A stretch of DNA of 26,239 bases from a virus (IMGVR_UViG_3300032030_000014:131919-158157), one strand, 5' to 3'; counted from the stretch's first letter, positions 1 through 26,239 are shown. Notes: a model not told the origin generated them from the sequence alone. Numbers and translations are program-made.

Positions 1-3000
1 TCATTGCATCTATCAACTATAAATATGCATCAATAAGAGCCATAATTTCATCATATTGTCTAATCCACTCTTCGGTTAGTGCCTAAGCCATAGTTAAAGT
101 TTCTTCTGATGCAGGAATAACTTCTTCAATCATCGTTTTAGCAAGAGCGTCATTCTATTTTGTTAAATCATCAAGCTATTGCTCTAACTCTCCCGCACCA
201 ACCTTAGCTTCTTCAGTAGCTTCCTAACGCATACTATTTAACCAGTCAATAGTTTCACCGGTCTCATGCATAAGAGTATCAGTTTCATTTTTAAAATCTT
301 CACCAGCATCTAAAACATCCTAAAAACTGGTGCCCCATGCTTCAGTATGATCTGTAACAGCAGTCTAATCTAACCAATATAATGCCCTATAATAACTTTC
401 ATAATCTTCTTGAATTAAAGCATTGTATTTATTATTAATATCTTCACGAAGTTTATTATAAGTTTCTTCATCGGCAATACGACCTTCGGCCCAAGCCATA
501 TCAAGATCTTTTAAAGCAGCATTACGCTCTTGTGTTAATTGAATAATCTTTTGAGTATAATCATTCGCTTGTCCAAGAACTAAGTTATATAAATCATTAT
601 TTTTCTTAGCTAAATCATCTTCAGCCGCATCAACCTATTCGCCATCTGCGGTATAAACATAGCCATAGTTGCCTTCGTTATCTCTTTGAAGACGAACTGT
701 AGACTTGGCGTTGCGTGCATCTTCAAGAGCTATTTCTGCTAAAAGAACTTCATAACGAGCTTTTGCAATATCCAATTCACTCTTACTAAGTTTATTTTTC
801 TATTGCAAACCTTCAATTTCAGCAGAAAAATTCTTTATTCTTAATTTAGCTGCATCATTATTTGTTTTATCTAAATCTTCAGCTAATTTTTTAATTAAAA
901 CATTAGTTTCATAAATCTAATTTGTTTTAGTCAAATATTCATCATCAAGGGCGTGCTGACGCTCTAAGGCATTATTAACCTAATCAAAACTGCCCCAGGC
1001 ACCAGATAAACGACGTTCTGAGTCTTGATAAATCTGGTTAATTCTATTTTCATAAATAGAATTAATAACCTCAAGATAAGCTTCAAAGTCAGCTTGCATT
1101 TCAGATTCAGCTTCAAGGAGAGCTTCTTTAGCAGGATAAAGAACAGCATTCTTCCATTCTTCTAATGCTGCCTCAGAAATACCATCAGCTAACAATTCCT
1201 AAAGAGTAGCCTCTGCATCAGCAACTTGACGGCGATACATTTCTGTCTATGCTTTAGATACTTCATATCCATTACGAGACATTTGTAATTGAGCATCAAG
1301 AATTTTACCAATAGCTTCATAGTCTGTCTATCTACCCAAGAGAGAAAGAACATTAGTTAGATGTTGGACGGTATTAAGCTAATGATCCATTTCATTAGTA
1401 ATGCGAGACATTTCATCCTTAACTTTACTAAGAACATTTTTATAATATTCTCGCATTTCCTCATTGATTTCCAACAAAGCATCTACACAACCATAAAGAC
1501 CATCTTGAGCATCTTTAATGGTCTAAACATAATCCTCTTGACTAATTTGTCCAGAAGAATAGAGAGATTGTGCTTCTTGATATGCGGAAGCCCAAGTACT
1601 GCCTTGATTGATAACTTCTGCTTTTGTATTTGTAACTCGTTTATCGAACCAAGAACGCATTACTTCTGGGACTTTATAGATATTATCTCCAAGGACTTTA
1701 ATAGCATATTCAATACGCTTTAAAGAGCGTTCACTAATTTCAACTTTAAGGTCTACTTTATATCTAAAATGCTCATAAACCTTAGCTTGTTGTTCATAAA
1801 GATTATCTAATAATTTATCAGATTGTTCTGTAAAAGTATTAATAGATTCATCATATTGATTTAATAGTTTTTGCATATACTCTTTAATGGCGGAAAGTCG
1901 ATCCCAATAAGCCGGATTGTTCTACTGTTCAATTGCGGTCATATTATTCCAAGTCTCAACATTTTTGTTCCACCAAGATTCTATTGCTTCTTCAATTTCA
2001 TCTCTATTAGCAATCTAGCCAAATTCATCTAACATTAAATCAAAATCAATACCAAGAACATCTTTTAATCCTTTCCAATCTTCTGTCTTACGACTTTCAT
2101 TACCATTTTCATCTTTTATTTTATACTAAATAGCTCCAACAACAGACGAAACAATTTTATTAAAATCTTTCTAAAGATTTCCGCCAGCCTTACCGGATGC
2201 GATAATCGCACCAAGATTTCCTCCACTTTGAAGAACCTTAGACAAATTATTCCAATCATCACCCGCAACAGCTTTTAAATAACGCTCATAAACTTGTTGC
2301 ATTTGTTTAAGCTTTGTGATTTCTTGCTCTAATAGAGCAATTTTATTTTTACCCCAAGCTCTATCTCGTGCCTTGCCAAGACGTTCATACTACTAAGAAA
2401 GACCTTCTAAAGTCTTATTTAATTCATCATAGCGATGTTCTTCGTCTTCTATAAGTTCTGCTTGACCAGTGGCCTCTTTTTCTGAGCCACCGCCTTTTTC
2501 ACCATCTTTTATTCCTGTTGTAGTAGGACCATAACTTGGCTGAATAAAATTAATTCCATTATCTTCATTTACTAAAGGAGAAAAAGCATCTGTAATAATT
2601 TCTGTCGAAGAAGTGTTACTATAATTTCCGGTTCCGGTATCTGTATATGAAGATATTTCATTAGTTTGCCCTTTATTACCACCTTTTTTAATTGGAGGTT
2701 TATTTTCTGTGACAATTTTAGTAGTTGCAGAACCAGATCCTTTAGTTCCCTTTATTGTATAAGTAGGAACATAACCAGTAACTTCAGCAGTATCTCCAGG
2801 GTAAGTAGTAGTAAATTTTTTATATAGAGGTTGATTTCTCTTCTATAAATTTCCAGCTGTGTCATAAAATTCAATTTCTTTAGAACCAGCATAAACCATC
2901 TACTCTTCTGTTATAGTAGTAGGTACGGTCATAGTTTGAGGATTATAACTTGTCTCAATATCTGCAGCAACATTAAGACCAGCCAATGTTGATTCAATCT

Positions 3001-6000
3001 ATTCTTTAGTCATTTTTCCTTTACTAATTAGATCATTAAAAGCATTAACTAAAGAAGTCTAATCCAATCCACCTGTTTCTAAATTTTCTGCAAGAGCAAT
3101 TTTTAATGCATTCCACTACTCTTCAAAACCAGACATATCTTCTCCGGCTTTTTCTAAATTAGTCTTAATATCTATAATTAACTAATCAGTAGCGACTTCT
3201 CTAAGCTTTAATATTGCTTCAACATTACCATCTAAAGCCTAAGTTAAATAAGCCGAATAAGTAGCATCTGTTAATAGACTCTAAGCAAATTCATCTGTTA
3301 AAACAGATATATCCATATTTAAAATATCGGCTAAATCTGTCTTAAGAGCATCCATAGTATTAGACCATTCAATACTATTTTTATCTGCTGAGCTTAAACT
3401 CTTTTTATAAGTTTCTAAGTTTTTATTAAGACTTAATAAACCTCTATCAAGTCTTTGATTTGCTATTGCTGCAGTTAAAGCAGATTTTTCCAATTGCTTT
3501 TCGCTAAAACCTGCTTCTTTCATTGCTTCTGACAAATTATTTTTTAATCTTTTAGCATAAGCCTCAGTTTCTTTTGCATCAAAGCCATGCTTTTCTGCCA
3601 ATTCAGCAACTGCAATAGAATATTTTAACGTCTCTTGTGCTGCAGCTGCAAGTTCTTTATTATTAGTGGTTAAAGCATGCTAATAAGCTTCTAAATCATC
3701 TGTACAAGACTCATATTTACTTGCCAAATCTTGTAAAGCTGCATTTTCCGCGAGAGTTTGAGCTTCTGTATCTATTCCAATTTCATTAAAACGCTATTTT
3801 ACATATTCAAGCTATTCTAATGAATCGGTTGCTGTCGCATAAGCAATGGCGTTAGCCTACATTGTTTCATAATCATTAACAACATGAGCTTCTTCACCTT
3901 CACCAATAATAGACTATCCAGATGAAATAAGACCTAAAGACCTTGCTCCTGCTGTTCCAGCTTCATTAATTTCTTGATTAGCGAATAAACCGATATAATT
4001 CTATAAATTTTTTTCAAAACCGACAGTAGATTCTTTAAATAATGCATCTTTAAATCCTTGTACATTTCCAACTAATTTATAAGTTCCATCTTCCATAATT
4101 TGGAAATAAGATTTAGCATGTTCTGAAAGTCCCTCAAGATTCTCAACAACATCACCAAATTTCAAAGATCCAAAAGCTTTATTTAAATTTTTAATATTTT
4201 CTTGAAGTGAAGAAATATCTTTTATCTAACTGCGATATATATCACCCAAAGAAATCTAATCTTTGATATATTGTTCAATACTATTAGCATCAATATTTGT
4301 ACCATTAAGATAATTATATAAATCCGCAAAAATCTATGCATCTTGTCCTGTTAAAGACATATTTTTAAAATCTTTAACATTTATTTTTGATAATTGTCCA
4401 GATAATAAATTAGTTAAAAGATCTTTATTTCCAGAAGAAAACTAAGAAGTCTTTTCAGCAATACTATTTAAAACATTGTTATATGTTTTAGGTAATTCAT
4501 TTTCTACTATAGATCGAGCTCTATTAGTAGCAACACTTTGTAAAACGCTATCTACAGATTTTTCAACATCTTTTCCTTGAATAGTATCATAATATTTAAA
4601 ATTACCATTTTGAATACCTTTAAAGGTTCCTGAAATTCCATTTAAATCAAAATATTCCTATAAAATTTTTTCTTTGTTTTCTGAATTAATTGTACTACTA
4701 ATTTCTGCATATCTTTTATCTATTTCATCCGCAGTCTATTCAGATAATATTTTACTTATAAAATTAGTAAAATCAGATAATCCTTTTTTTTCTGCCTCTT
4801 CCTAAAAGTCAGTATCATATAATAAACTGTTTGCTAAAATCTCAGAAGTATCACTAAAAGAAGAATTAAATTGTTTTGTATTATTAGCAGATTCTTTAAG
4901 ACTATCTTTAAAATCATGAAGCTCTGATAATGGTAAAATATTTTTAAATTCTTCTGCAAATCTATCCCAAGACATATTTGCATAATACTCAGCATTATCA
5001 AAAGCGGCATTTATATATTTTTCGTTATTTGTATTTGAAAACTTATCTTTAAGCTTATTATCATTTACCAGATTTTGCTAAGCAGAAAGTTTCATATTGC
5101 CATATAATGATATTGACTATAAACGATTAGCAGTTTTCTAAGCTTCCTTCTATATTTCTGCTAAATTTGTAATAATACGAACTCCATTGACATATTCGAA
5201 TTGCATTTTATTAACTAAATTTGGATATTTCTAAACAATGTCAATAGTAGCCTATTTTACTTCTGCTAAAGCATCATTCCATTCTTTTGTTCCTTTAACA
5301 CAATTATTTAATGTTTCAATAACTGAATCATAAGAATCTATAGTTGATTTTAATGATTCAGCATTTTGCTAAGCTTCATCAAAAGCATCTGATAAATCTT
5401 TTGCTGTTTTTTGAAATTTTTTCAGCTATCCTTCAGGAGATTTTTCTTTGATACCTTCAAAAACTTTAATAAGAACTGCTGCTACAGCAACAACAGCCCC
5501 TATAATTAAAGATATTTGCCAAAAAGCTAATTGAATTTTTGCTCCAGAAGCAGCAAGAGCAAGATTTGCTGTTGTCTATATTTTAGTCATATTTGTTATT
5601 AATGGCAAAATTGTTCCAACAGACATCATTAACTAAAGAGCTTTTTCTCCATTGGTTAAATCATCATTATTAAGAATATTACCTAAATTTTTTAAAGTAT
5701 TTATGGCTGAAGCAACACTCATTATTGTACTAGATAATGTTGACATAACTGAGCCAAAATCAAAAGAATATTGACCTAATGCTTTTAATTTTTCTCCAGT
5801 CTACTATGCACTATTACCTAGCTACGTTGTTTTATCTGAAGCATCTTGAGCTGCCTAAGCTGATCTTTGACAAGAGTCGGTAAACTATCCCGCTGCATTA
5901 CTTGCTTCTGCCGCACTCTATCCACTTTTCTAATAAGCAGCGGCCAATTTACCTTCCATATCTTCCAACTAAATCTAAAGATCTACCGGTAAAGCTTGTT

Positions 6001-8266
6001 TTAATTCAGAACTAAGCTATTTAATTCTATCAATGATATTCTAAAAAGCTTCTGGGCCATCTAAAGTGTTAATAGAAGAACCTAAATCACGAAAAGCCTA
6101 ATCTAAATTACCTATTAAATCCTCATTTTTGCTATCTAAGAGAGTTCCTTTTAAACTCTCTAAAGCAGGCATTTCAGTTGCTCCTATTTGTTTTAAATTA
6201 TTATATAACTCCTAACTTTCTTTGCTTGATAAATCTAAATTCTAAGGAATTTTTTTTGTAATAGATTCAAAAACAGCTGTTGCAGAAGAAGCAGCAGCCA
6301 TAGAGGTTGTCATTTTCTTTATTTCATTCTAATATTGCTGAATGTCTTCTGCTGAATAAGATTTATTTTTAGCGGCAGCTGCTCTACGAGCCTACTCACT
6401 TTGCTATTTTCCCAACTCGTTTGTCTGACGTTCTAATTCATCAGCTGTTTTTCCAGCAGTAATAGCTTCTTCACCCATCTATCTGTTCATATCTAATAGA
6501 AGCTATGCCTATTTCTATTCTTCCTCTGTCATATATTTAGCATTATCCAATAGTATTCCTTGCAAATTGGCTTGCTGCTTATAAGCTTCAGTCATAGCAC
6601 CACCCTAAGCAGTTCCCTATAATTCAGGAGAATTGGTCATTGCAAACAATTCTTTATTAGCCTATGCTCGTAAAGATTCTGCAGACTTCTATCCTTTTGG
6701 AGTCATCATAGCAATGCTTGAAACCATATTATTTATAGAAGTCTAAATCTATGCACTGAAAACAGAGGTTAAAACACTACCAAGAGTAAGTAATACTCCT
6801 TTTAATCCACCTATATTATCAATAAATTTATCCAAAAACGACAGAGTTTTTTCTAACCAATTTAATAATTTAATAAAAACCTTATCATCTAATAAATCTT
6901 GATAAATCGCCTAAGATGCAGCACGTACTCTTTTTCTTGCTGCTTCCCAACTTTCAGCATAAATATCTGCCTATTCTTGAAGAGTACCTTCAGAATTTGC
7001 TGCCAAATCCTAATTAGCAAGAATTTTATCATAATTATTCATAATTGCCATAAACTGAGCATACTGTCTAGTTCCGGCAACTGTTTCAGCTAAGGCAACC
7101 TTTTGAGCTTCTCCGATACTACTCCACTTTTCACTAAGTTCATCAAGAATAGTATCCATATCTTTTAAATCGCCATTGGCTTTAAGAATATTAACTCCAA
7201 CGGTATTAATAGCTTCTGAATATTTATTTAATGTAACTCCATCTTCAAGAGTTTCTCCAAGTTGAAGACCCTAAAAACGAGCAAACATCGTTTTAAAAGC
7301 AGTACCAACTACATCTGCACTTTGACGAGTTTCAGCAACAACAGTAGCTAATGCCGCAGTTGCTTTCTCATAACTTAAACCAACTGTATCTGCTACAGAA
7401 GCAAATTTCTATAAACCTTGAGCAATTTCATCAGAGCTTGATGCAGTTGCCGCACCTAATTTAGTAATAACATCTGCATAATACTCTAATGATTTAGAAC
7501 CATCATCAAAGTTATTCCAAATAGCAGTCATCTGACTTGAAACTTCTTCTGCACTCTAACGAGATACATTAGCTAATTTAATAGTTACATCTGTTCTCTC
7601 TTTTACAGCTTGATCATTTAAACCTTGCTGATAATAGATTAATGCGGCGTCGGTATATGCAGTTGTTGAAGTACTTAAAGCTTTAGCTGCACGATTTGCC
7701 TCATCCGCAAATTTAGCCATCTAATCAATAGATTGACCAGTGACAATTCTAATGTTATTTAAACTTTCATTTAAATCCTAAGCATAACCATAAGCACCTT
7801 GAAGAGCTCCCATAAATCCATGCAAAACACTAGAAGAAATTTGCCATCTTGCAGTATTCTTTAAAGTGGTAGCAAAATTGCTCAATAAAGCATTAGATCT
7901 TCTTAATGGAACTTCTGCCTACATAATAGACGAAGCTAATTTAGAAAATGCCTAAGAGCCTTCTGGACCTAAAGAAGATAAGGCAGCTCTATAATCACTT
8001 AACTTTAAACCACTTTTCTACAGCCCTTCATTAAATTTTGTTAAATCTAATTTACCTGTAGAAGAAGTAGCAGATTCCAACTAAACTTTTAACTATGCAG
8101 CCATCTATGTAGCTTTTTGAATTTCAGAAGATAATCCTAAAGAACTATCTTTTCTTTGAGCTGACATCATTAAATTGTCCAACTACTTCTATAAAGCCTA
8201 TAATTCTATCTTAGCTTTACTTGTATCAGCTGTCATAGCTAAATTAACATTTAATTGTTTAGCCAT
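1..8266 (-). CDS. Tail tape measure protein, 5' complete with the 3' end beyond the window start (more than 2,750 codons). It contains many in-frame TAG codons read as sense.
   Basis: The ATG at 8266-8264 follows an AAAGGAG site (rc of 8271-8284). The standard-code ORF fragments 980..1195, 1523..1876 and 3281..3601 and the start codon all share one minus frame (top coordinate = 1 mod 3). Hand translation of 8266-8078, 1876-1500 and 1195-600 shows only TAG interruptions. Five 60-nt stretches I sampled (2401, 4201, 5101, 6001, 7201) contain no in-frame TAA or TGA. The N-terminus translates as MAKQLNVNLAMTADTSKAKIEL*AL*K*LDNLMMSAQRKDSS, which is coiled-coil with TAG at Gln-like positions. Its length and its position after a chaperone gene fit a tape measure protein. 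Confidence 0.75.
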
Positions 8267-8300
8267 TTATTATACTACTCCTTTCTCTCCGAAATTAAGT

Positions 8301-8339
8301 AAAAAAATAAGGGGTAGGAAATAATCTATTTCCTACCCC
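8301..8339 (-). terminator. Rho-independent terminator between the chaperone gene and the tape measure start.
   Basis: Perfect 12-bp stem GGGGTAGGAAAT (8311-8322), 5-nt loop, ATTTCCTACCCC (8328-8339). An A-run at 8301-8308 gives a U-tract on the minus-strand transcript. Confidence 0.7.
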
Positions 8340-8378
8340 GATTACTCCTATATATTCTTACAGAAGTAATATTATAAA

Positions 8379-8903
8379 TTAACCTAATTTGGTTAGAACA
8401 TCTTTTAGTAATGTAAGCGAATTAGGATCAGCAATATTTTGCTTTAATTTTTCAGCATCTAATTCTAAATTACTATAATCAGTATTCATGGCATCAAGAA
8501 TACCATAAATACTATTACGATATTCATAAATATGTTCTGCGGTCTTACTCAACCACATTACAATACTTTTATATTCTCTTTGAGGCATTACCGTAAACAA
8601 ATCATCAAAAAATCCACTTCCCGCAAGTAAATCATACATTTTTGCTGGATCTTCTTTTTGTTTATCAGTAAAGTTAATATTTGTATATCTATAAGCAACC
8701 TCTAAATCCATAAACATAGACATTTTTGCTTCATTAATAAAATTATTTTCATCTTGACAATTATTTAATACAGATGTAATTAAATCCATTTTCTCCTGGA
8801 TTGGTAGATACTACTTAACTTCTACAATCTATCCATTCCAATCAAAAGAAGCGATATCTGTATTTTTGGTTAAACCAAGTTTTGTAAAGGCTATTTTTGC
8901 CAT
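8379..8903 (-). CDS. Tail assembly chaperone-like protein (174 aa, 2 in-frame TAG).
   Basis: ATG at 8903 with an AAAGGAG site 9 nt upstream. It is in the same frame as standard-code ORF 8379..8789 and ends at TAA 8379-8381. It is a small acidic protein directly upstream of the tape measure gene, which is the canonical chaperone position. No GT-type frameshift extension is evident. Confidence 0.5.
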
Positions 8904-8963
8904 ATAAAACATCTCCTTTTTCTCTTTATACTAAATATAATATAACAAAATTTTTGACGAAAG

Positions 8964-10076
8964 TCAAATACTCTAAACTTTAGAAGCCGTAATAGAAACT
9001 TCGCCTAAAAGATTATCTGCTCTAGAAGCAGATTCTAATGCTTCTAAAATAATACTAGCAGTATCTTTAACAAAAATTGCATCTGAAGATGGATCGTTAT
9101 AAATTAAGTATTTAACAGGTAAAACTAACCCATTTTGATCTAATAATCCAGAACCTCTTAATTCATATATAAAACGCAAATGACTAAAATGTGTTCTTGT
9201 CTATTCAGCATAACCATGATTGTTATATAATATAGTATTCATACCTCTAAAAAACATACTTGCCTACTATTTATGTCCCATCTAAACTTCACTAAGAGCA
9301 CCAGTAACCGCCTTATATAAATTTGTATGTCCTAAATGTAAACCAAGAGCGGATAATTCTTTCTTTGAATCTTCGCTCCAAGCTTTAGAATTATAGTTCT
9401 TCGCTGAAAAAGTAGCATCTTTCATTAAAACTAGTAATCTTTCTACAGAAAAAGGCAATTCTTTGGTATAATTTAAAGTAATAGCTTTACCGCTAATATC
9501 AATTTTACCAGTGGCATTCCCTATCTATGTTGCTGCTTTTTTATGCTCAATATCTGCTAATTTTTTAATTAATTCTTCTGCAGCTTCATCTGCTAAATTA
9601 GATAAATTCATATTTTTATATGCCTAAGTAGCTCGAGTTCCAGAGCTCTAACCTCCAACTAAAAAAGATTCCATACTAATTGAAGTGTTTCCTCCAAGAA
9701 ATTCTCCTGCAGCTAATATAGCTGCCAAGTCTTCTTCAAAAATACTGTCCGCTTCTTTAACTCTTGCTACGCGTTTACCTCTAGCATCTGCTCGATGAAA
9801 AAGTGTACTCGGCTAAAACCCTTTTCCATGATACTAAGACTGAAATTGATAAGCTGTCTAAATCAATTCATAAAATTCAGATTCCATACTATCACCAATA
9901 ATACTATCTGATACTTTATTAAAATCTTTTGCTGCTATTTTTAAAGCCATTAGAATAGACTATAACTCTAAAGCCTCTCTTTTTGCTGTATTACGTTTCA
10001 TTTTTGCAATCATTGCATTATGTACATTTTTTAAAATCACAGAAAAATCTTCTGAATCACTATATAATGCAGCCAT
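8964..10076 (-). CDS. Hypothetical tail-module protein (370 aa, 12 in-frame TAG).
   Basis: ATG at 10076 with an AAAGGAG site. Hand translation runs continuously to TGA at 8964-8966 and includes standard-code ORF 8973..9179. All interruptions are TAG. Confidence 0.6.
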
Positions 10077-10100
10077 AAATTCAATCTCCTTTACCACAAA

Positions 10101-10147
10101 AATAAAAAAAATGGGAGAAGACTTGCGTCTCCTCCCATTAATTTTTT
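10101..10147 (-). terminator. Rho-independent terminator after the major tail protein gene, apparently bidirectional.
   Basis: Stem ATGGGAGAAGAC (10111-10122) / GTCTCCTCCCAT (10127-10138) with one mismatch and loop TTGC. It is flanked by an A-run (10101-10110) and a T-run (10142-10147). Confidence 0.65.
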
Positions 10148-10148
10148 A

Positions 10149-11246
10149 TCAATAATTCTCTTCAAGGAATGGTCTCTGGTTAGTATTGTATGCTGTTTGA
10201 GTATCAGCACTAAATACTGTTTCGGTATCAGGATTGACACCATTGTGATGTGTGCCAAGACGTTCAAAATCAGCAGCTGTTTCACCAAGCTCAAGAACCT
10301 GAATAGCAGCATAAACCTTCTTGGTCTTATCCCAACGAGTATAATCTGGGAAAGCATCCATTGTGAATGTAAAGGTAGAAGGATCGCCAGAAGATGCCAT
10401 TGTGAAGGTAAAGTTAGACTATACCTTGCAGTTAGGAATTACAAACTCAGCAGGCATATCTACACCATTTGTATCACGGAAGAGAGTAGAAGCTTCAAGA
10501 TAGAAGTTACCACCGAACTTATCAGGAGTAATGTTTACCTGGAATGCACCAGAAGTATATTCTACATAGTAGTCAACAAGAACTACACAGCCATTGGTGA
10601 ATTCACTTAAATCATTAATACGACGAGAATCATCAGAATGACCTTCATCAGTACCATATACTCTTACCTTCCAAACTTCTGCATTATTAGATCCAGTACC
10701 TGCAGCAATCTCAGTGGCAATTTCTGAAGCGATATAAGGCTCAGATTTAACTTCGCCATGATCATCAAGAACCATAATATAAATATAATCTTCTTTAGGA
10801 TTAAGCTATACAGGATCTCCGTTGTTTATTGGAGTAGAAACTGTTTTTACATATGGCTTCTTAGAAAGAGTAACTTCTACAAAAGGAGCATTGCTATTAG
10901 AATTATCAACACGAACTTTATCAGTCTGTTCAGTTGTATGCATAATAACTGGCTTATCCTTTGCATCAACAAGACCAGCACCAGTTAGAATTGAAAAACC
11001 AGCAGGAGAGATAAGAGCATCTTCCATTGTGAAGGTTACTGTACGCTCGCCTTCCCAAGCTACGAGACGGGCATTGCCACGACCGCCCTGTGCATAAACA
11101 GTTGTAGCTGCTCCTTCCATGCTGGAGGTTTTAAGACTATCAAAATAAAGAACTGGCTCGTTCTTATAGAATACCTTATTACCAATCTTCTGAGCAGCCT
11201 TTGCCTTAAGAACTACATCGCAAATCTCACGAACACCAAATTTCAT
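10149..11246 (-). CDS. Major tail (tube) protein, putative (366 aa, only 2 in-frame TAG, at 10806 and 10419).
   Basis: ATG at 11246 with an AAGGAGG site. The standard-code fragments 10806..11246, 10419..10775 and 10149..10400 are all in one frame. TGA stop at 10149-10151 is followed by a terminator. Position in the tail module, GC-richer codon usage and low TAG density suggest a highly expressed tube protein. Confidence 0.5.
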
Positions 11247-11266
11247 GGTAATTTTTCCTCCTTAAT

Positions 11267-11998
11267 TTAATGAATATTTTTCATCCAATTGTCTGGCTGT
11301 TTATCTGGTTTCCCACCAGCCAAACGAGAACGAATGTCAAGATCCCAATTTGTATAAAGCATATATCTTTCTACTAAATCAAAAAGCTAATACATAGTTA
11401 AGTTTTTACAATCTTCTAAAGACATTGAATTAAGTCCAACTGTTAAAACAGATATATACTATGCAAAAATACTTCCTTTTCCATCGCCTTTCTATGCGGC
11501 TACACGCTTGCGCGCACGCATAAGTTTTTCGGCAATTTCCTTTGCTTTTTGATTTTGAGGATTAAATGACTATGCTTCCATAGGACCAGTATTAATGCAA
11601 AAAATCTAATTTATTATTTTTTGAAACGCATCAAAATTGCTTTCATCAATTATAATACTTTCATTATCTTTTCTTAATAGAATACTTCTTGGAGTTAAAG
11701 TCATAGAATATTTTGGAAAAATTAATGGGAATAATTGCTTAACAGCTTCTTTTTTATCCGCAGTTTCTTTTTCTTGCATTATCGTCATAAATATCTAAAA
11801 ATTGTTTGTATCTGTTAAAAGAGTTTCGCCCTAAGCTATCATACTTTTATTCACACAGAGTGTTTGTACTCCAGTAAAAAAGTCTATATCGCCAATAAGA
11901 GCAATTTCACAAATTTTTGGCTAATGTATAACTAACTAACATTCTGGAATTGGAATATCAGTACCGCACATTAAAGCCAAAGTTATATCATAAGCCAT
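11267..11998 (-). CDS. Hypothetical head-tail joining or tail protein (243 aa, about 10 in-frame TAG).
   Basis: The ATG overlaps the upstream TAA as TAATG at 11998. Hand translation runs through standard-code ORF 11606..11788 to TAA at 11267-11269. Confidence 0.55.
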
Positions 11999-12588
11999 TA
12001 TTTATTATACATATTATCCCAATTAGAATCAATATCTGCTTGCTCTCCTGGCTTAGCTGCAAACTTAGAATCTTCTCCTTCATACCCATGAATTGTTTGA
12101 TACATTAAAGTAAGACCAGCAAATTCATCAGATAATACAATCTAATTTGCACCAAGAAAATCAATCTTGCCAATACCAGTAAGTCTTTTATTGTTTAACA
12201 TACTATCAATTTCAGCAGCGATTTTATATGGACGCAATTGCATATCTTTTAAATTCCACTAATCAAAATGACAAACAATATCAAATGAAATAATATTATC
12301 TCTAAACTCTGGATTTGTCATATTAGGAGTAAAATTATCAAAACTTATGATAACATAACAAAATTCAGGTTTATCTACTTTTAATTTAGGAACAATTTTA
12401 ATTTGTTTCCCAAACATATCTAAAGCTTTATCTTGTGGAACATTAGGCTAATCTAATGCATTTGGAACATCATAGTATAAAAGTTTTTTCAACCTATCAT
12501 TACTTAAAAACTTATCTACTAAAAGCCCCATATCTTTTTCCACCGCTAAAAAGCTTGACTCAGGAAAAGAATAATTTATAATTTTCAT
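11998..12588 (-). CDS. Hypothetical head-tail joining or tail protein (196 aa, 3 in-frame TAG).
   Basis: ATG at 12588 preceded by AAAAAGGAG. Hand translated to TAA at 11998-12000. Confidence 0.55.
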
Positions 12589-12605
12589 AGCAAAACTCCT
12601 TTTTC

Positions 12606-13682
12606 TCAAAACAGAGACTCAACAACAATTGTTTTCTTCAATGTTCCATATTCAATATCAAACTAACCACTATAGTTAGACTCCCATTGAAGTTTTATAG
12701 TTCTATCATCAACAATCTCATATTTAATAGGATATTTAGAATCAATAGACCAATTTGCTACTGTAAGTCCAGTATATTTATATTCATAAATACCTTTAGG
12801 CTTAATAAATGTTTCGCCTTCAATCAAATGTTCAATACGATTTGTATTTGGATTTTCTTCTTTCACAATTAACCCTCCAGCAACACCATTTTCAATATCA
12901 TCTTCAAATTCATTAGAATAATATTCAACAGCATTAATCTAAAGGATTCCAGGAGTAGAAATCCAGTCAATTGCTTCAACTCTCCAACAAATCTTTTTAT
13001 CATCTTCGCCTAAATAAAATTTAGAATATCTATTAAAATAATCTAAATTATATCTATTTGCTGGTAATAAAATATTTAAAGAAAAGTTTGGTCTATCAAC
13101 ACTAATTCCTGCTTTTTGAATAAAATTAATTTTTGTTTCAACAGGTCCACGAACTGCGGCATAAGTAAAATGCTCATTTCCTTCTTCGTCTTGATATTTA
13201 ATGGTGTATCTACACCGTCTTATTTCCCCGCGAAAATAAGCTAATTCTGTTTTATCTTGAAGATATATTAACCAATGACTATTGGTATTTACCCATTCAA
13301 ATACATCACCTGGCTAATATCCATGTTCATAACCAATTGAAATAATTTTATCATCATAATCCTGCTTTACTTTATCAGGATTGATTAAAGCACGTACAGG
13401 AGGCTATTCACGAAGCTATTCCGTAACTTCTTCTTCAAGCGGAAAAAACTTCTTAACGAAAGCTCCTTGATAAGAATAAAGTACGGCTTTATCTAGGCTC
13501 CGACGCTTATCTCGGATCATACGCTCTTGTTGCGTGCGGCCACCCATCTAAAAGAGATGTTTGGCTAAAACAGAAACTCCTTGAATGGAACTTTCTTGAT
13601 ACTGAGGAGAAGATAAATGACCCAATCTACCGCCGAGATTTCTTAATCCTGTGGTATACATTGTTCTTTCATCAGGTCTCAT
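12606..13682 (-). CDS. Hypothetical structural protein (358 aa, about 8 in-frame TAG).
   Basis: The ATG overlaps the upstream TGA (ATGA at 13682-13679). Hand translation contains standard-code ORF 12663..12866 and ends at TGA 12606-12608. Confidence 0.55.
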
Positions 13683-13990
13683 TTCATCAACCCCCGCAAT
13701 AATCCAATGGCTTCAAAGACTGTTTTTCGATACAAGGGAAAGTCAGTAACAGCAGCCATTGCTTTAATTCCTTCTAGTTTGGCTAATAACTATAAAAATT
13801 GCGGGTTCTCAATAAAAATCTCATTAAGTCCCGCAATTTCTAAAATTACTGTATCAAGTTGTTTCTACCAATCTTCATTATTTTCACGCATCGGAATTAA
13901 TTTCCACATCTAATTAGTTAATCTAATAATATTTTTTTCAAAAACTTCTGCGGAAATTTCAAAATCATATTTAGTTAGAGTATCTATCAT
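13679..13990 (-). CDS. Small hypothetical protein (about 103 aa, 3 in-frame TAG). The start is uncertain and could instead be the ATG at 13909.
   Basis: An in-frame ATG at 13990 follows a GGGGGG site 6 nt upstream and overlaps the end of the upstream gene by about 20 nt. Stop is TGA at 13679-13681. Confidence 0.4.
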
Positions 13991-14606
13991 AATAAACCCC
14001 CCAACCAAATACATCCCAATTAGAGCGATACATTCCATCATAAGAAGTTCCTGTATCTCTAATCATTCTTCTGCGTTTATATAATCTTTGCATGTGGATA
14101 GATTGAGTTTTACACTCGTTCAATAACCCCATCAATTTTTGTAAATGATTTGCTTGAGAAGTCATTTTAAAATCGCTACCAGAATATTTCATTCTAGTAT
14201 TTTCAATAGATGTAACCTGTCTTTGAACCCAGGCTTGCATCATAAGAATAGCAATAATATTAATTTCTTCAGATGTTAATTCAAAATTAAATACTGAATT
14301 TTCAACTAATACCATTTCTTCTTGATCATTCGCAAGCATATTATCTAAATCAAAATTATCTCCCTCTAATTCATGCCAAACAATACCCAGAACAAAATCT
14401 CCATCTGTAACTTCACTACGAGGTTTTACAACTGTATTTATCGTATAATCAGATAAATTACATCTTGGAAATTCAAAACCAGGCAAAGCGTCAAGAAGTA
14501 AGGTCTGTAAATCCCTTAACGTATCTTCTGGAGTTAATTCCACATACATATCATCGGTAATTTTTCCGAGAAAGCGGTCGTAAATAGTGCTAAAAGATGT
14601 ATTCAC
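13971..14606 (-). CDS. Hypothetical head-completion or connector protein (211 aa, no TAG).
   Basis: Intact standard-code ORF with a GTG start at 14606 after an AAGGGGG site and a TAA stop at 13971. Confidence 0.5.
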   Translation of the reverse strand: MNTSFSTIYDRFLGKITDDMYVELTPEDTLRDLQTLLLDALPGFEFPRCNLSDYTINTVVKPRSEVTDGDFVLGIVWHELEGDNFDLDNMLANDQEEMVLVENSVFNFELTSEEINIIAILMMQAWVQRQVTSIENTRMKYSGSDFKMTSQANHLQKLMGLLNECKTQSIHMQRLYKRRRMIRDTGTSYDGMYRSNWDVFGWGVYYDRYSN

Positions 14607-14627
14607 TACTCACGCCCCCTTAAAATA

Positions 14628-15209
14628 TTATCCTTCGTCGGCTTTCTTACTAATTACTTTATAATTGGTAGTAGTACGACGTCCTGCCGCAGCTGTTGTC
14701 TAAGGCTTTACTCTACGCTCTGGCTGAGCTGGTTCAATAAAGTCGCCTTCTTCTGCTTTTTCTTCTTCAATATGAACAAGAGCCTTATCAACATCAAAGC
14801 CAGTCTTTTCCTTCAAAGCCTTTCTCTTATTCAAATCAGTCAAAGGAAGTTGAACGGCAAGTGTCTTAATAAGATCAATTACTCCCAATGGAGCAAAATC
14901 AAGGGCATCAAGAAAAGCATCTAAAGAACCACGTAAAAGCAAATCTCTAACCTGAACCTCAGACATATCATACTCTACTTCACGATGAACATTCAAATCT
15001 GAAGTAACAACTTCATCACCAATTTGTAGAAATTGTTCAAGCATTTCACGTCCACCTGGTTGATAAGTTAGTTTTTCTAACTCACCAAAGGGAATTTTCT
15101 TTGTCTCACCGGGAGCAAATTCACGACGAAGATTGCTCTCTGGAATTCTATACACTACTGAACTTGCACTTCTATTTTTTACTAAATACATTGTATCTTG
15201 CTTAATCAT
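14628..15209 (-). CDS. Hypothetical head-completion or connector protein (193 aa, 1 in-frame TAG near the C-terminus).
   Basis: ATG at 15209 with an AAAGGAG site. Standard-code ORF 14700..15209 continues through TAG 14700-14702 to TAA at 14628-14630. Confidence 0.55.
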
Positions 15210-15301: not shown

Positions 15302-16453
15302 TCAAGGATTTTGACCAGAAATAGGCTGATCGTCACTTACGCCACCATCAAGATAGCCACTCTTGCGGCCATCATAAGTTGCGATATTGCCATCAACGCC
15401 ATTGAGATTCCAATTAATCATCTGGCCAAGGAGTGATGTATCAACATAGCAGCAAATGTTGTTGGCAAGGATAGCAGTTACGCCAACCTTCTTGTAAACC
15501 TGGACTTCACGAGAACGGTCATAGTTATTGAATTCATCAACAATTGTGCCACCCTCGAAAGCGATTTTTACAGGCTTGCCATCAACGCCAGTAGGAATTA
15601 CCCAGCAATAACCTGGATCAATTACCTTACGAGTATTAGTTTCATCCTCAAAGCCTTGCTCAAGAATGATAACTTTTGTGCCCTTATAGTTTGCAAGACG
15701 ACCAGTATTCCAAAGCTCGGTCTTCATAGCTTCAGTATAACGCCAAGCTTCGTTAGGAATCATCTTTACAGCAAATTCATAAGTACAATAAATAGTAGGA
15801 GTACCGTATGCGGAAGCAATCTGGATAAGACGATCCATTGCACCCTCATCGAAACCAACAGCAGCAACACGGTTTGCTGGAGGAAGCTGATTGATAGAAG
15901 CCTTAAGGGCTGCAGCTACCTCTTTATAAATAAGTTCGTCCATACCTTCCATAATGATACGAGTTACTTCTGCGAAGTCAACACGACCATCAAGGAACTC
16001 TTCGAAGCCGATCTGAGCGGCTCCGCCGATGGCACTGGTACGTACTTCGAAGGCTTCCTTCTCGGCAGGACCGAGCTTGAAGACTTCGTAGATACCAGCA
16101 AGTCCAACACGTGTTACGAACTGCTTTGCACGGGCACGTGTATTAAGTGGACGACGGAATACAGGCTTATCACCCTGAGCAAACTGCTTAACTTCAGCGA
16201 ACTGATTGTAAGATTGCTCAACTTTCTTTGGAAGGACTTCATCAAGAGTCTCTTCAATCATAGAGAAAATAAGGTTCTTATTTTCACGATACTGTGCGTA
16301 AGTGCCAGCCAGCTCATTAAGCTCATTACGGAGAGTTTCATTAAGAGCAGCATAAGAAAGCTGCTGATCACCGTAAGAATAAGCTACAGGAGCAGAAGGG
16401 TCGGCCTTAGCAACTTGCTTCATTAAAGCAACTAAATTAGCTCTATCTAACAT
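15302..16453 (-). CDS. Major capsid protein, putative (383 aa, no TAG, GC-richer).
   Basis: Intact ORF with a GGAGAG site and a TGA stop followed directly by a terminator. It sits downstream of the portal/scaffold block. The sequence has a capsid-like feel, reminiscent of gpE-type or HK97-fold coats. This rests on my reading of the protein, not on a database search. Confidence 0.5.
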   Translation of the reverse strand: MLDRANLVALMKQVAKADPSAPVAYSYGDQQLSYAALNETLRNELNELAGTYAQYRENKNLIFSMIEETLDEVLPKKVEQSYNQFAEVKQFAQGDKPVFRRPLNTRARAKQFVTRVGLAGIYEVFKLGPAEKEAFEVRTSAIGGAAQIGFEEFLDGRVDFAEVTRIIMEGMDELIYKEVAAALKASINQLPPANRVAAVGFDEGAMDRLIQIASAYGTPTIYCTYEFAVKMIPNEAWRYTEAMKTELWNTGRLANYKGTKVIILEQGFEDETNTRKVIDPGYCWVIPTGVDGKPVKIAFEGGTIVDEFNNYDRSREVQVYKKVGVTAILANNICCYVDTSLLGQMINWNLNGVDGNIATYDGRKSGYLDGGVSDDQPISGQNP

Positions 16454-16471
16454 TACTCTTCTCTCCTTTCA

Positions 16472-17536
16472 TTAAGCGATACGCATAATCTTTACGCCAC
16501 GCTGATTATCAGGCATGGTGTAAATCTTAACAACCTGCCATACCATGTCGCCAGAAGCGGCACCATTTGTATCGGCAGAAGCCTTTTTTGTCTTGCAAAG
16601 AATACCCTTATCTCCAACATAGAGAGGATCTCCAACAGAAAGGGTCTCGGTAAATTCACCAGTAGAAGAATTTACTGCAAGATTAATTGTATTAGTGGTG
16701 AAAATATCACCAACGTTAGTCTTGAATACACGAGGAACCATCTGAGTGCCGGTGGGCATTCTCTTCTCGCGGTAAAGACCAAGGCGTCTCCAAGGATCAT
16801 TAGTGAAGCCCCACTCGTAGTAATCTTCCTTATCCTTGGTTACATCTTCCATCATATACTCAACAGGAACCTGAGTCTTAGAAGTACCATTTTCATCAAG
16901 CTCATACTGTTTGCCATTGTAAGTAAATACTTTTGCTTCATGGGTCTTAGCTGGGACATAACCATCTTCGCCCTCGGTGCCAGAGGCAGGAGTATCAGTA
17001 ATTGTGGTTGTGCTTACAGCATAACGCTTATCACCAATAGTAACTGTCTGTCCTTCAATATCAAGAGTGACATACTGGTTGAGAGTCATTGGCTTTTCTC
17101 TTACAGGATTACCATTATCATCAACAAGATTGAGTCTATGCCAATCCTTATATTCAATCTCAGCATTCTCATAATCATATGGACTATAAATACGAGCCTG
17201 ATAATCATCCTTTAACATTGCAAATTCGCAATCCCACTGCTTACTTCCATCTGGAAGGTTACGATAAAGCTTGATTTCGTTGTAAACGAGCATCCATTCA
17301 CCTGCGCCAGTGAAATCTACGAGACCAATGCCATTACCATTAGCAGCGTAATCATATTTTACGAACTGACCCTGCTCGAGAATTTCAATACTTGGATCAG
17401 CGGGTAACTGGGCATAAATTTGAGCTGTTCTCTGAGCAGAAAGATGATTTGGTTCAACTTGACCGTAGCCGAATTCAACATAACTAGCTTGAGACTGAAT
17501 AGGCATACGAGTCTTTAAAAAATCTTTAAACATCAT
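16472..17536 (-). CDS. Abundant head protein of unknown type, possibly a decoration or second capsid protein (354 aa, no TAG, GC-richer).
   Basis: Intact ORF starting ATGATG after an AAGGAGG site, ending at TAA 16472. It lies between the scaffold and capsid genes. Confidence 0.45.
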   Translation of the reverse strand: MMFKDFLKTRMPIQSQASYVEFGYGQVEPNHLSAQRTAQIYAQLPADPSIEILEQGQFVKYDYAANGNGIGLVDFTGAGEWMLVYNEIKLYRNLPDGSKQWDCEFAMLKDDYQARIYSPYDYENAEIEYKDWHRLNLVDDNGNPVREKPMTLNQYVTLDIEGQTVTIGDKRYAVSTTTITDTPASGTEGEDGYVPAKTHEAKVFTYNGKQYELDENGTSKTQVPVEYMMEDVTKDKEDYYEWGFTNDPWRRLGLYREKRMPTGTQMVPRVFKTNVGDIFTTNTINLAVNSSTGEFTETLSVGDPLYVGDKGILCKTKKASADTNGAASGDMVWQVVKIYTMPDNQRGVKIMRIA

Positions 17537-20838: not shown

Positions 20839-21195
20839 TTAATAGCCAGCCTTATGCATTATATAATCATAAGAAATCAAATTCTCTTCTGTATAGGGAA
20901 TTTCAATTAGTTTAAAATCATGTAAAGCACAAAATCTTCGCTTTCGGTTATCATTGTATTGCTACTAATAAAGACCACGTTTTCCACCAAATTTGGAACT
21001 GGCCTCGTAATGCTATTTACCCTAATATTCTATAATAAAGTCAATATTTCCATCATCATCAAATACAACAAAATCAAAACGAAGAGGTCTGCCGCTGGCC
21101 GCAACTAAATCAGGAAAACTATATTCCTCTTTAAAATTAAATCCTGCATCTATCAAAATTTCTTCTATTCTAATTTCTCCTCTTGACGCACGCAT
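20839..21195 (-). CDS. Vsr/DUF559-like endonuclease-fold protein (PD-(D/E)xK superfamily), about 118 aa with 4 in-frame TAG. Possibly a free-standing homing endonuclease.
   Basis: ATG at 21195 directly after the terminase TAA, with an AGGAGAGG site. Translation reads MRASRGEIRIEEILIDAGFNFKEEYSFPDLVAASGRPLRFDFVVFDDDGNIDFIIEYQGKQHY. The FDFVV...IEYQGKQHY stretch resembles the Vsr/DUF559 core. Stop is TAA at 20839-20841. Confidence 0.45.
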
Positions 21196-25385: not shown

Positions 25386-25414
25386 TTGACTTTTTATAAA
25401 AATTTTTTTATAAT
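25386..25414 (+). promoter_or_regulatory. Consensus sigma70/sigmaA promoter for the rightward operon.
   Basis: TTGACT (25386-25391), a 17-nt spacer, then TATAAT (25409-25414). An AAAGGTGGGGG site follows at 25431-25441, with the ATG at 25447. Confidence 0.6.
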
Positions 25415-25446
25415 TATTATAGAAATAATAAAAGGTGGGGGATTTT

Positions 25447-25986
25447 ATGGTTATCACTATTATATCACTTGGTATCATATTATTTATATCTATAGTATTT
25501 AATATATTCATTTTAAAACTTCTTAATAGAAGTTTAGATACAATTATAACTTTAAACAATAATTTTGAAGAACTGGAATTTATGGAAGGAATTGCGGATA
25601 TTCCAGAAGAGAAGGTATTACAAAAATTTGAAGATGCAACTTTATTTTGTAATACTGTGCCTATAAAAACTGACGAGGTGCTTCAAATTTACGACACCTC
25701 TCTATATTTGAAAAATAAAGTAATTGGATTAACGTATTTTGTCCCAGAACAGGATTTAACCGACATCAAAAACGATTTACAATTAAAACGCAAAGACATA
25801 GAAAAACACATACGACAAAAATTAGCAGAGCAGCAAATAGAAGTAACAGCACAGGAATTTGAAGAAATTATGATGAACGCAATGGAGCAAGCCCAAGCCG
25901 CAATAGTTCCACTCTTGCCGCATTGTACGGTTTATCAATTGACGGATGGAAGATGGCTTTGGCGCAAGGAGGAAAGTGATGGCTAA
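25447..25986 (+). CDS. Small membrane-anchored protein with an N-terminal TM helix and a soluble coiled-coil-like domain (179 aa, no TAG).
   Basis: ATG at 25447 after a strong ribosome-binding site. The hydrophobic stretch VITIISLGIILFISIVFNIFILKLL is followed by charged residues. Stop is TAA at 25984-25986. The ORF track's GTG start at 25435 is less likely than this ATG. Confidence 0.55.
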   Translation: MVITIISLGIILFISIVFNIFILKLLNRSLDTIITLNNNFEELEFMEGIADIPEEKVLQKFEDATLFCNTVPIKTDEVLQIYDTSLYLKNKVIGLTYFVPEQDLTDIKNDLQLKRKDIEKHIRQKLAEQQIEVTAQEFEEIMMNAMEQAQAAIVPLLPHCTVYQLTDGRWLWRKEESDG

Positions 25987-26239
25987 AGACTACTTTGATT
26001 TGTATTGTGATACCTTCGGTATCACTGACCCATTCCAAGAGTCGCAGGAAAGATTTAATAGGAAAACCACAAAACATTTTACTCCTTCTGGGGGAGAATA
26101 TTGGGAAGTAGATATTACAAAGACGGCAGAAGATTTGGCTTGGGAGAAAGAATGGGAAAAGAGAAGAGATGAATACTTGCGGCTGGAGCATGTTTTCCGC
26201 CTTTGGGAATTTCACGACAGATTGAGTTGGGATGATTTT
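25979..26239 (+). CDS. Hypothetical protein, N-terminal 87 codons, continuing past the window end.
   Basis: The ATG at 25979 overlaps the upstream stop (ATGGCTAA) and follows a GGAGGAAAG site, so it is translationally coupled. The frame is open to 26239. Confidence 0.5.
   Translation, partial: MAKDYFDLYCDTFGITDPFQESQERFNRKTTKHFTPSGGEYWEVDITKTAEDLAWEKEWEKRRDEYLRLEHVFRLWEFHDRLSWDDF

Follow-up and report, generated by a model that had tools for sequence, protein, structure and literature searches.

A single minus-strand reading frame fills the first 8,266 nucleotides of IMGVR_UViG_3300032030_000014:131919-158157, a stretch of viral DNA of 26,239 nucleotides that we refer to as the window. This raises the questions of whether such a long frame is one gene, what it encodes, and what is represented by the Gly/Ser/Thr-rich segment within its product. 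An initial annotation had proposed an exceptionally long tape measure gene, read under translation table 15, in which the segment was either an immunoglobulin (Ig)-like or fibronectin type III (FN3)-like domain or a linker; two fused or adjacent genes were considered as well. We regard it as highly probable that the window holds about the first 88% of a single tape measure protein (TMP) gene from a large, non-contractile-tailed phage that reads TAG as glutamine and whose genome size is probably 120 to 200 kb.

From the ATG at position 8266 to nucleotide 2 the frame contains 2,755 codons, with one base over. It has 97 TAG codons and not a single TAA or TGA, and over this span the two remaining frames of the strand contain 113 and 363 TAA and TGA codons, so that its openness is far beyond chance. 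The claim that the frame runs open to the window edge for more than 2,750 residues therefore holds, and when we looked inside the span for an in-frame TAA or TGA followed by a ribosome-binding site and a start codon, there was no TAA or TGA to be found. Under table 11 the same span is shattered by 97 stops into many small open reading frames (ORFs); one continuous frame results only when TAG is taken as a sense codon. All 18 called genes of the window terminate in TAA or TGA, and apart from the TMP gene, TAG is present in 14 of 17 called genes. In the TMP gene, TAG accounts for 97 of the 188 Gln-type codons and is evenly spread, with 5 to 18 TAGs per 250 codons. At the alignment columns where the window has TAG, glutamine is the commonest residue of standard-code relatives (27% versus a background of 7%), followed by glutamate and lysine (11% each). 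Compared to the nearest relative, locus L036, whose flanks are ~93% identical at the DNA level, 13 of the 18 substitutions that involve TAG are exchanges with CAG or CAA. NCBI places the related phage phAss-1 in the 'Caudoviricetes code 15 clade', and three Gln-type tRNA-Sup-CTA genes were reported for it (PMC10607447). Because of the glutamines at TAG columns, the L036 substitutions, and the code and suppressor tRNAs of phAss-1, table 15 (TAG as Gln) is the right code for the window, as had been assumed from the start.

The relatives also argue for one gene. We used 31 IMG/VR loci that match the N-terminal 525 residues and let only TAA and TGA terminate their ORFs. Among the close relatives (L001 to L029), complete TMP ORFs range from 2,678 to 3,404 amino acids. 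In the standard-code relatives L005, L009, and L010, which have no in-frame TAG, the gene is a single ORF of 2,785, 2,960, and 3,260 amino acids, respectively, and thus the span is one ORF without any recoding assumption. Inside the TMP gene of the window, only two in-frame starts have an upstream Shine-Dalgarno (SD)-like motif (amino acids 573 and 699), and the scan of in-frame starts found no SD motif plus start near the Gly/Ser/Thr-rich segment. This indicates that the whole span is one gene and not two. The closest relative of the product is P0121, a protein of 3,144 amino acids, which was found by an exhaustive phmmer (HMMER) search of 1.84 billion representative proteins with a TAG-free fragment of the segment as the query. 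It is 93 to 100% identical to the window product over amino acids 1 to 900 and 1900 to 2755. The nearest genomes are uncultured: Logan SRR11487846_2081 (P0121/L036) and IMG/VR 3300037453_001206 and 3300032007_000018. None of 50,697 phage records was matched in a megablast search with 25 kb of the window. The human-gut phage phAss-1 and many uncultured IMG/VR genomes belong to the same lineage, and cultured Enterococcus phages of the EF1/VRE9 type, which use the standard code, are more distant members.

The use of TAG differs inside this one TMP clade. L005, L009, and L010 have 0 in-frame TAGs, and L001, L003, L004, L013, and L016 to L025 have 57 to 110; recoding was therefore gained or lost among fairly close relatives. 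The TMP ORFs of L002, L007, L008, L011, and L012 contain 1 to 6 TAGs. In L015, L023, L026, and L027, the TMP frame is broken by TAA or TGA after 98 to 330 codons despite good N-terminal homology; another code, insertion of an intron or homing element, or an assembly error are possible reasons.

When TAG is read as Gln, the product matches PF10145 (PhageMin_Tail) with 97.7 bits (cutoff, 33.2; E value, 1e-27) and TIGR01760 (tape_meas_TP901) with 111 bits (cutoff, 28.8) in the N-terminal region listed in Table 1. Eight PHROG families named 'tail length tape measure protein' match amino acids 10 to 630, and one homologue is named 'TP901 family phage tail tape measure protein' by one database source. 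A sequence search of the PDB with the whole product gave no match. Helix formers dominate in approximately 80 of 90 sliding windows of the product, helicity being judged from composition only. In the hydrophobic region (amino acids 833 to 936), the Kyte-Doolittle mean over 19 residues reaches 2.7, and an equivalent peak is present in every relative. Self-BLAST of the TMP revealed no internal repeats or duplication. The order of the late module on the minus strand is a sigma-like factor, a terminase large subunit-like gene, a small homing endonuclease, the portal, the major capsid protein (MCP)-like phrog_4088, several virion proteins, the tube-like phrog_2729, two small genes, and the TMP gene. 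On the distal side, relatives have a tail-type ORF after the TMP gene, of 2,889 or 2,176 amino acids (L036 and L001). Based on the profile matches and this synteny, the gene at 8266 can be assigned to the TP901 family of tail tape measure proteins, in agreement with the initial annotation.

The gene continues beyond the window. Every complete relative ends with a C-terminal module of the form GGYTGxW...LHxKExVLN...FPNA...ASQYA, and the window product lacks it, which confirms that the frame is still open at the edge. The last window residue aligns to residue 2763 of 3144 in P0121 and to residue 2505 of 2764 in L003, which leaves ~381 and ~260 residues, respectively, beyond the window. The 3' end of the gene, some 260 to 380 codons, is thus expected outside the window, and the full protein would have about 3,000 to 3,140 amino acids. 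An exact 40-mer from the window edge had no match in IMG/VR or JGI metagenome contigs, and the 3' end was not recovered.

The protein is built from four modules: first, a conserved N-terminal TP901-type core with hydrophobic helices (amino acids 1 to ~940); second, a fast-diverging central spacer, whose length varies across the clade (amino acids ~900 to 1770); third, the nonhelical segment, rich in Thr, Gly, Ser, and Lys, which we call the hinge and whose position is fixed and whose sequence is not; and fourth, a conserved C-terminal module of ~1,000 to 1,250 residues that opens with an RY...DR..G helix. At the DNA level, nucleotides 5572 to 8688 are 94% identical to L036 and nucleotides 1 to 2539 are 92% identical, and between them there are only patches of at most ~74% identity. 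The identity profiles with L036 and P0121 therefore place the divergent block from just before the transmembrane (TM)-like helix up to the hinge (amino acid ~1909, nucleotide ~2540). Compared to the nearest relative, the length of the central block is kept within eight residues. Across the clade, the part before the TM-like helix measures ~880 to 1,090 amino acids and the part after the hinge ~940 to 1,250, whereas the central part varies between ~780 and more than 2,200 amino acids. As the length variation sits in the central part, the hinge lies where a variable spacer meets a constant C-terminal module. The post-hinge module starts with the conserved helix HRYDEL...KARDRAWGKNK (invariant RY...DR..G), and the C-terminal module of ~1,000 to 1,250 amino acids has no Pfam annotation.

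The hinge is composed of 17% T, 12% G, 9% K, and 7% each of S, N, and E. It is the only long stretch of the protein where G, P, S, T, N, and Y clearly outnumber helix formers, and the peptide that was quoted in the initial annotation is found within it, letter for letter, at amino acids 1835 to 1887 (nucleotides 2606 to 2764). The helix that precedes it, LVNAFNDLISKGKMTKEQIESTLAGLNVAADIE, is the window version of the clade motif [IV]NAAGMTAEQA..Y..SMG[VY]DAE. The same four-part arrangement is present at the equivalent place in the relatives and in 21 database fragments: the conserved helix, 90 to 160 nonhelical residues, a poly-Gly/Ser/Lys tract, and the invariant RY...DR..G helix. The nonhelical part of the relatives is rich in Thr, Pro, Val, Tyr, and Gly and shows little sequence conservation, and its end is usually formed by a hairpin-like motif, for instance AFSLKVTSAHKSSGGNFKF; the window version is VPTYTIKGTKGSGSATTKIV. 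A profile of the hinge is detectable in ~20 complete relatives, including phAss-1 and VRE9_4. The segment had been described as an insert; with the same element at the same place in ~20 relatives and 21 database fragments, this description has to be dropped. No Pfam family matches the hinge at an E value of 1 or below. The phmmer search mentioned above gave one homologue of the hinge fragment, P0121, at the same position, and a word-indexed protein search with the hinge region alone gave nothing; matches were obtained only with a profile of eight relatives. For AlphaFold2 (AF2) we used the TAG-free fragment of amino acids 1809 to 1957, alone and together with 21 homologues (an alignment of 22 sequences). 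The mean predicted local distance difference test (pLDDT) score was 41 for the single sequence, where five short strands were drawn, and 47 with the alignment, where residues 1 to 120 of the fragment were coil and only the following conserved helix gained confidence. Poly-G/S/T tracts were reported in 95.5% of TMPs (PMC13585406). The hinge is therefore probably a flexible, disordered linker between modules and not a folded adhesion domain. Of the two possibilities offered initially, the linker is favored, and an Ig or FN3 domain is not, given the missing Pfam match and the pLDDT values of 41 to 47.

Alternatively, the hinge may be a processing site where a precursor of ~3,100 residues is cut into an N-terminal part with the ruler and membrane functions and a C-terminal part close to the tip. 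Relatives with a Hint domain at this place would make the cut autocatalytically, and Hint-less members such as the window would depend on a phage or host protease. We consider this unlikely, although there are several arguments for it. In three relatives (L010, L021, and P0069), a PT-HINT domain (PF07591; 77 bits; cutoff, 27.7) is located exactly inside the poly-Gly tract of the hinge, with junctions of the form ...RGS/CF.AGT...HN/KG... (slashes mark the borders). Canonical splicing uses Cys, Ser, or Thr after the terminal His-Asn, but in all three relatives this +1 residue is Lys. In the chemistry of inteins and bacterial intein-like (BIL) domains, a +1 residue other than Cys, Ser, or Thr favors cleavage over ligation, and the Lys thus suggests that these domains would cleave rather than splice in the canonical way. 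Some other phages are known to mature their tape measure proteins by proteolysis (lambda gpH to H*), and the hinge is a module boundary in both sequence divergence and length variation. On the other hand, a profile search found no Hint domain in the hinge of the window itself, which also has no recognizable protease site. Most relatives have no Hint domain, and noncanonical +1 residues are no strict bar to splicing. The insertions could be selfish elements that are tolerated in a disordered linker; a catalogue of inteins in actinobacteriophages lists those in TMPs as ordinary invaders (bioRxiv 10.1101/2025.01.02.630785).

A further idea, to which we give even less weight, is that the hinge is a functional break point where the two halves part after assembly or during ejection, and that some lineages recruited one or two copies of a PT-HINT domain that cleaves and does not splice. 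If true, Hint autoproteolysis would have a new role in the maturation of virions, and the use of two ruler modules would be a new principle in the construction of very long tails. That the hinge folds into a small beta domain (Ig-like, FN3-like, or of another kind), perhaps binding the cell envelope after ejection of the TMP, seems very improbable. Its richness in Thr, Tyr, Val, and Ile with the alternating patterns typical of beta strands, the five strands of the single-sequence model, and the recurrence of the hairpin-like motif in relatives would fit such a domain. However, no Pfam family is found, the model with the 22-sequence alignment is coil throughout with pLDDT values below 50, and a single homologue was detected among 1.84 billion representative proteins, although Ig and FN3 domains are ubiquitous. 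Moreover, its sequence and length (~90 to 160 amino acids) are poorly conserved, even compared to a relative whose flanks are 97 to 100% identical, and a TMP sits inside the lumen of the tail tube and is not displayed. Finally, that the span represents two or more adjacent or fused genes joined by artificial read-through, with some TAGs as real stops, can hardly be maintained: table 11 splits the span into many small ORFs and GenBank has the homologous phAss-1 region as 17 hypothetical proteins, but the authors of phAss-1 re-annotated these as one 3,149-amino-acid TMP, the evenly spread TAGs behave as Gln codons in a frame without TAA or TGA, all other genes of the window stop at TAA or TGA, the standard-code relatives have one ORF for the whole span, and there is no SD-plus-start near the hinge.

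With the span read as one TMP gene, the protein would most likely act as a conventional molecular ruler. Several copies, mostly alpha-helical, would stretch along the lumen of the tail tube while it grows, and polymerization of the tube would stop at a length set by the length of the TMP itself. At infection the TMP would be expelled ahead of the DNA, and the hydrophobic helices of amino acids 833 to 936 may help to form a passage through the host membrane. At 1.5 Å per residue, the part of the protein seen in the window corresponds to 413 nm, and ~3,100 residues give an estimated tail of ~450 to 470 nm, so the expectation of a tail of several hundred nanometers follows from the usual scaling. 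For phiCbK and Colossus, with TMPs of 1,964 and 2,155 amino acids, the same value predicted 295 and 323 nm, in good agreement with measurement (PMC3556154). Most siphovirus tails are 50 to 200 nm long (PMC10034513). We also considered a record-length tail and rejected it, as the tail of P74-26 measures ~1 µm and the TMP ORFs of L006 and L021 are still open at more than 3,855 amino acids.

Some points weigh against our interpretation. No -1 frameshift (G/GT-type) chaperone extension was seen after the gene at 8379-8903; many siphoviruses have such a frameshifted chaperone pair, which is common and not obligatory for TMP membership. No tRNA gene, and thus no suppressor tRNA (anticodon CUA), was found in the window or in the ±10-kb structural-module loci of 21 relatives, which fits a location of the tRNA genes in other parts of these genomes. 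We assume from phAss-1 that this phage may have one elsewhere in its genome, and some recoded phages have no suppressor tRNAs (PMC10607447). The 3' end of the TMP gene and the distal tail genes lie outside the window. Low AF2 confidence is no proof of disorder, as a fold that depends on oligomerization or on the tube would be missed, and the short hairpin-like motif xLKVxSAxKSSGGxxK, which recurs in relatives, hints at local structure. The ~160 nonhelical residues and the hydrophobic region may contribute more or less than 1.5 Å per residue, giving an error of tens of nanometers. We found no electron microscopy measurements of tails of the cultured relatives (Perkons, PMBT10, VRE9, and EF1/EF5/H1) in the searchable literature; one paper tabulates EF1 and EF5 as 'Myoviridae', without data. 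Tail length and virion location are therefore inferred.

Table 1. Features of the TMP gene, its surroundings, and the Hint insertions of relatives (window positions unless a relative is named)
Feature	Position	Strand	Details	Basis
TMP gene, 5' part	2..8266	-	2,755 codons, 97 TAG as Gln	Frame, start, profiles
TP901-type tape measure core region	6797..7810	-	aa 153-490; PF10145 at aa 192-398	
Hydrophobic region	5459..5770	-	aa 833-936; ends in TM-like helix FWQISLIIGAVVAVAAVLIKVF, aa 915-936	
Central divergent cassette	2540..5575	-	aa ~898-1909	20-50% identical to nearest relative, flanks 93-100%
Conserved pre-hinge helix LVNAFNDLISKGKMTKEQIESTLAGLNVAADIE	2954..3052	-	aa 1739-1771	Alignments with relatives and database fragments
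Nonhelical hinge	2474..2953	-	aa 1772-1931, 160 aa	Composition, no Pfam domain, relatives
Beta-hairpin-like motif VPTYTIKGTKGSGSATTKIV	2711-2770	-	aa 1833-1852, within hinge	
Gly tract GEKGGGSEKE	2474-2503	-	Within hinge	
Post-hinge module	2..2437	-	aa 1944-2755	93-100% identical to P0121
PT-HINT copies in relatives	L010 aa 2052-2188; L021 aa 2619-2755 and second copy in tandem; P0069 aa 1671-1807			
Shine-Dalgarno AAGGAG	8278..8283	-	11 nt upstream of ATG 8266	Read directly
Terminator-like hairpin	8301..8339	-	13-bp stem GGGGTAGGAAATA/TATTTCCTACCCC, 3-nt loop, T-run	Consensus match only
Upstream small gene	8379..8903	-	174 aa; position of tail assembly chaperone	phrog_30570
Probable major tail (tube) protein	10149..11246	-	Same position in VRE9_4	phrog_2729 'virion structural protein', E 2e-55
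Homing/HNH-type endonuclease gene	20839-21195	-	Between terminase-like and portal genes	phrog_9084, E 2e-28

The surroundings of the gene are listed in Table 1. The phrog_30570 gene also precedes the TMP gene in Enterococcus phage VRE9_4. Between it and the TMP start lies the strong terminator-like hairpin, on the coding strand, which might lower the amount of transcription that reaches the low-copy TMP gene. We saw no sheath-like gene in the module of the window, which fits a non-contractile tail; the authors of phAss-1 also concluded that its tail is non-contractile (PMC10607447). The gene at 8964-10076 (minus strand; 370 amino acids), between the tube-like gene and the gene in the chaperone position, has no PHROG or NCBIfam match and shows the highest share of TAG in the window, with 12 TAG versus 3 CAA or CAG codons. 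Of the 5 Gln codons in the endonuclease gene, 4 are TAG. Two adjacent capsid-region genes within 15302-17536 (minus strand), phrog_35301 and the MCP-like phrog_4088, contain 17 Gln codons each, and none of these is TAG (P ~1e-4 for each gene, given a window-wide TAG share of 0.41), and their GC content is 0.41 to 0.44 versus ~0.32. The gene at 13971-14606 (minus strand) has TAG in 0 of 9 Gln codons. The suppressed codon may be avoided in the head genes because they are the most highly expressed, or these TAG-free genes may be recent imports. In the last kilobase (~25400-26239), the GC skew goes from approximately -0.2 to 0, and the sole sizeable plus-strand ORF of the window (25435-25986) falls in the same kilobase; the late transcription unit probably has its border here.

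Among known systems, phAss-1 of the proposed genus Phassvirus (OQ749652; Int J Mol Sci 2023, PMC10607447) is similar in its TAG-to-Gln recoding, with 110 TAGs in its TMP gene versus 97 here, in its TMP of ~3,150 amino acids with a TP901-type N-terminal core, in its large siphovirus-type genome, and in the detectable hinge profile and conserved C-terminal module. TMPs of 3,149, 3,150, and 3,209 amino acids were published for phAss-1 and its two relatives (PMC10607447). However, the aligned TMP blocks are only ~23 to 32% identical in amino acids, and there is no similarity at the nucleotide level (megablast), whereas members of Phassvirus were reported to share ~80 to 86% nucleotide identity (PMC10607447). 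The window therefore does not belong to Phassvirus and is only a distant relative. The Enterococcus EF1/EF5/H1/VRE9 group (PP680570; TMP of 2,673 amino acids) has the same PHROG order across the head-tail module, a related RY...D..YG helix after a charged linker at approximately amino acid 1,650, and a related C-terminal GGYTG...LHEKE...FPNA motif. In VRE9_4 the TMP is one annotated coding sequence of 8,022 nucleotides (2,673 amino acids), again a single giant ORF. In contrast to the window, this group uses the standard code and is 24 to 31% identical in blocks only, and its linker is rich in Lys, Asp, and Glu, whereas that of the window is rich in Thr, Gly, and Ser and has a poly-Gly tract.

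The TMPs of the TP901-1 family (TIGR01760/PF10145; lactococcal TP901-1 and Tuc2009) share the core, which matches above curated cutoffs, as well as the N-terminal helical region, the hydrophobic helices, the position of the gene after the tube and chaperone genes, and the presumed ruler function. Typical members have ~900 to 1,000 amino acids. The TMP of the window is approximately three times longer and adds a variable cassette of ~1,000 amino acids, the hinge, and a C-terminal module of ~1,000 to 1,250 amino acids. In Thermus phage P74-26, too, a very long TMP determines a non-contractile tail of great length, and its tail of nearly 1 µm is the longest known (PMC10034513). That tail is about twice as long as the one predicted here, and P74-26 is unrelated in lineage, host, and sequence and is not recoded.

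The description of the gene as exceptionally long is relative. The predicted tail is long compared to most siphovirus tails, but the description is overstated for the clade, where TMPs of 2,678 to more than 3,860 amino acids are normal and such a length was already published for phAss-1. The window represents a new, uncultured member of the amber-recoded large siphoviruses with TMPs of ~3,000 residues that were described in 2023. The biological value is modest and current understanding is not overturned; long recoded TMPs of this lineage were already published. Standard-code gene callers shred this gene, and code 15 restores one structural protein of ~3,100 residues. In GenBank record OQ749652.1 (L001), the 3,150-amino-acid TMP of phAss-1 (5261-14713) is still annotated as 17 short hypothetical proteins, and database entries P0122 to P0142 are among many unnamed pieces of such TMPs, 100 to 435 amino acids in length; both are annotation damage from standard-code gene calling. 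For this uncultured phage, a tail of ~0.45 µm is predicted. Together with this prediction, we consider the corrected annotation and the map of the protein modules the most useful results. More generally, the clade shows how giant rulers are built, with two rather constant end modules, a flexible hinge, and a fast-diverging central cassette that carries the differences in length. Comparisons and engineering of tail length could thus start from this central cassette.

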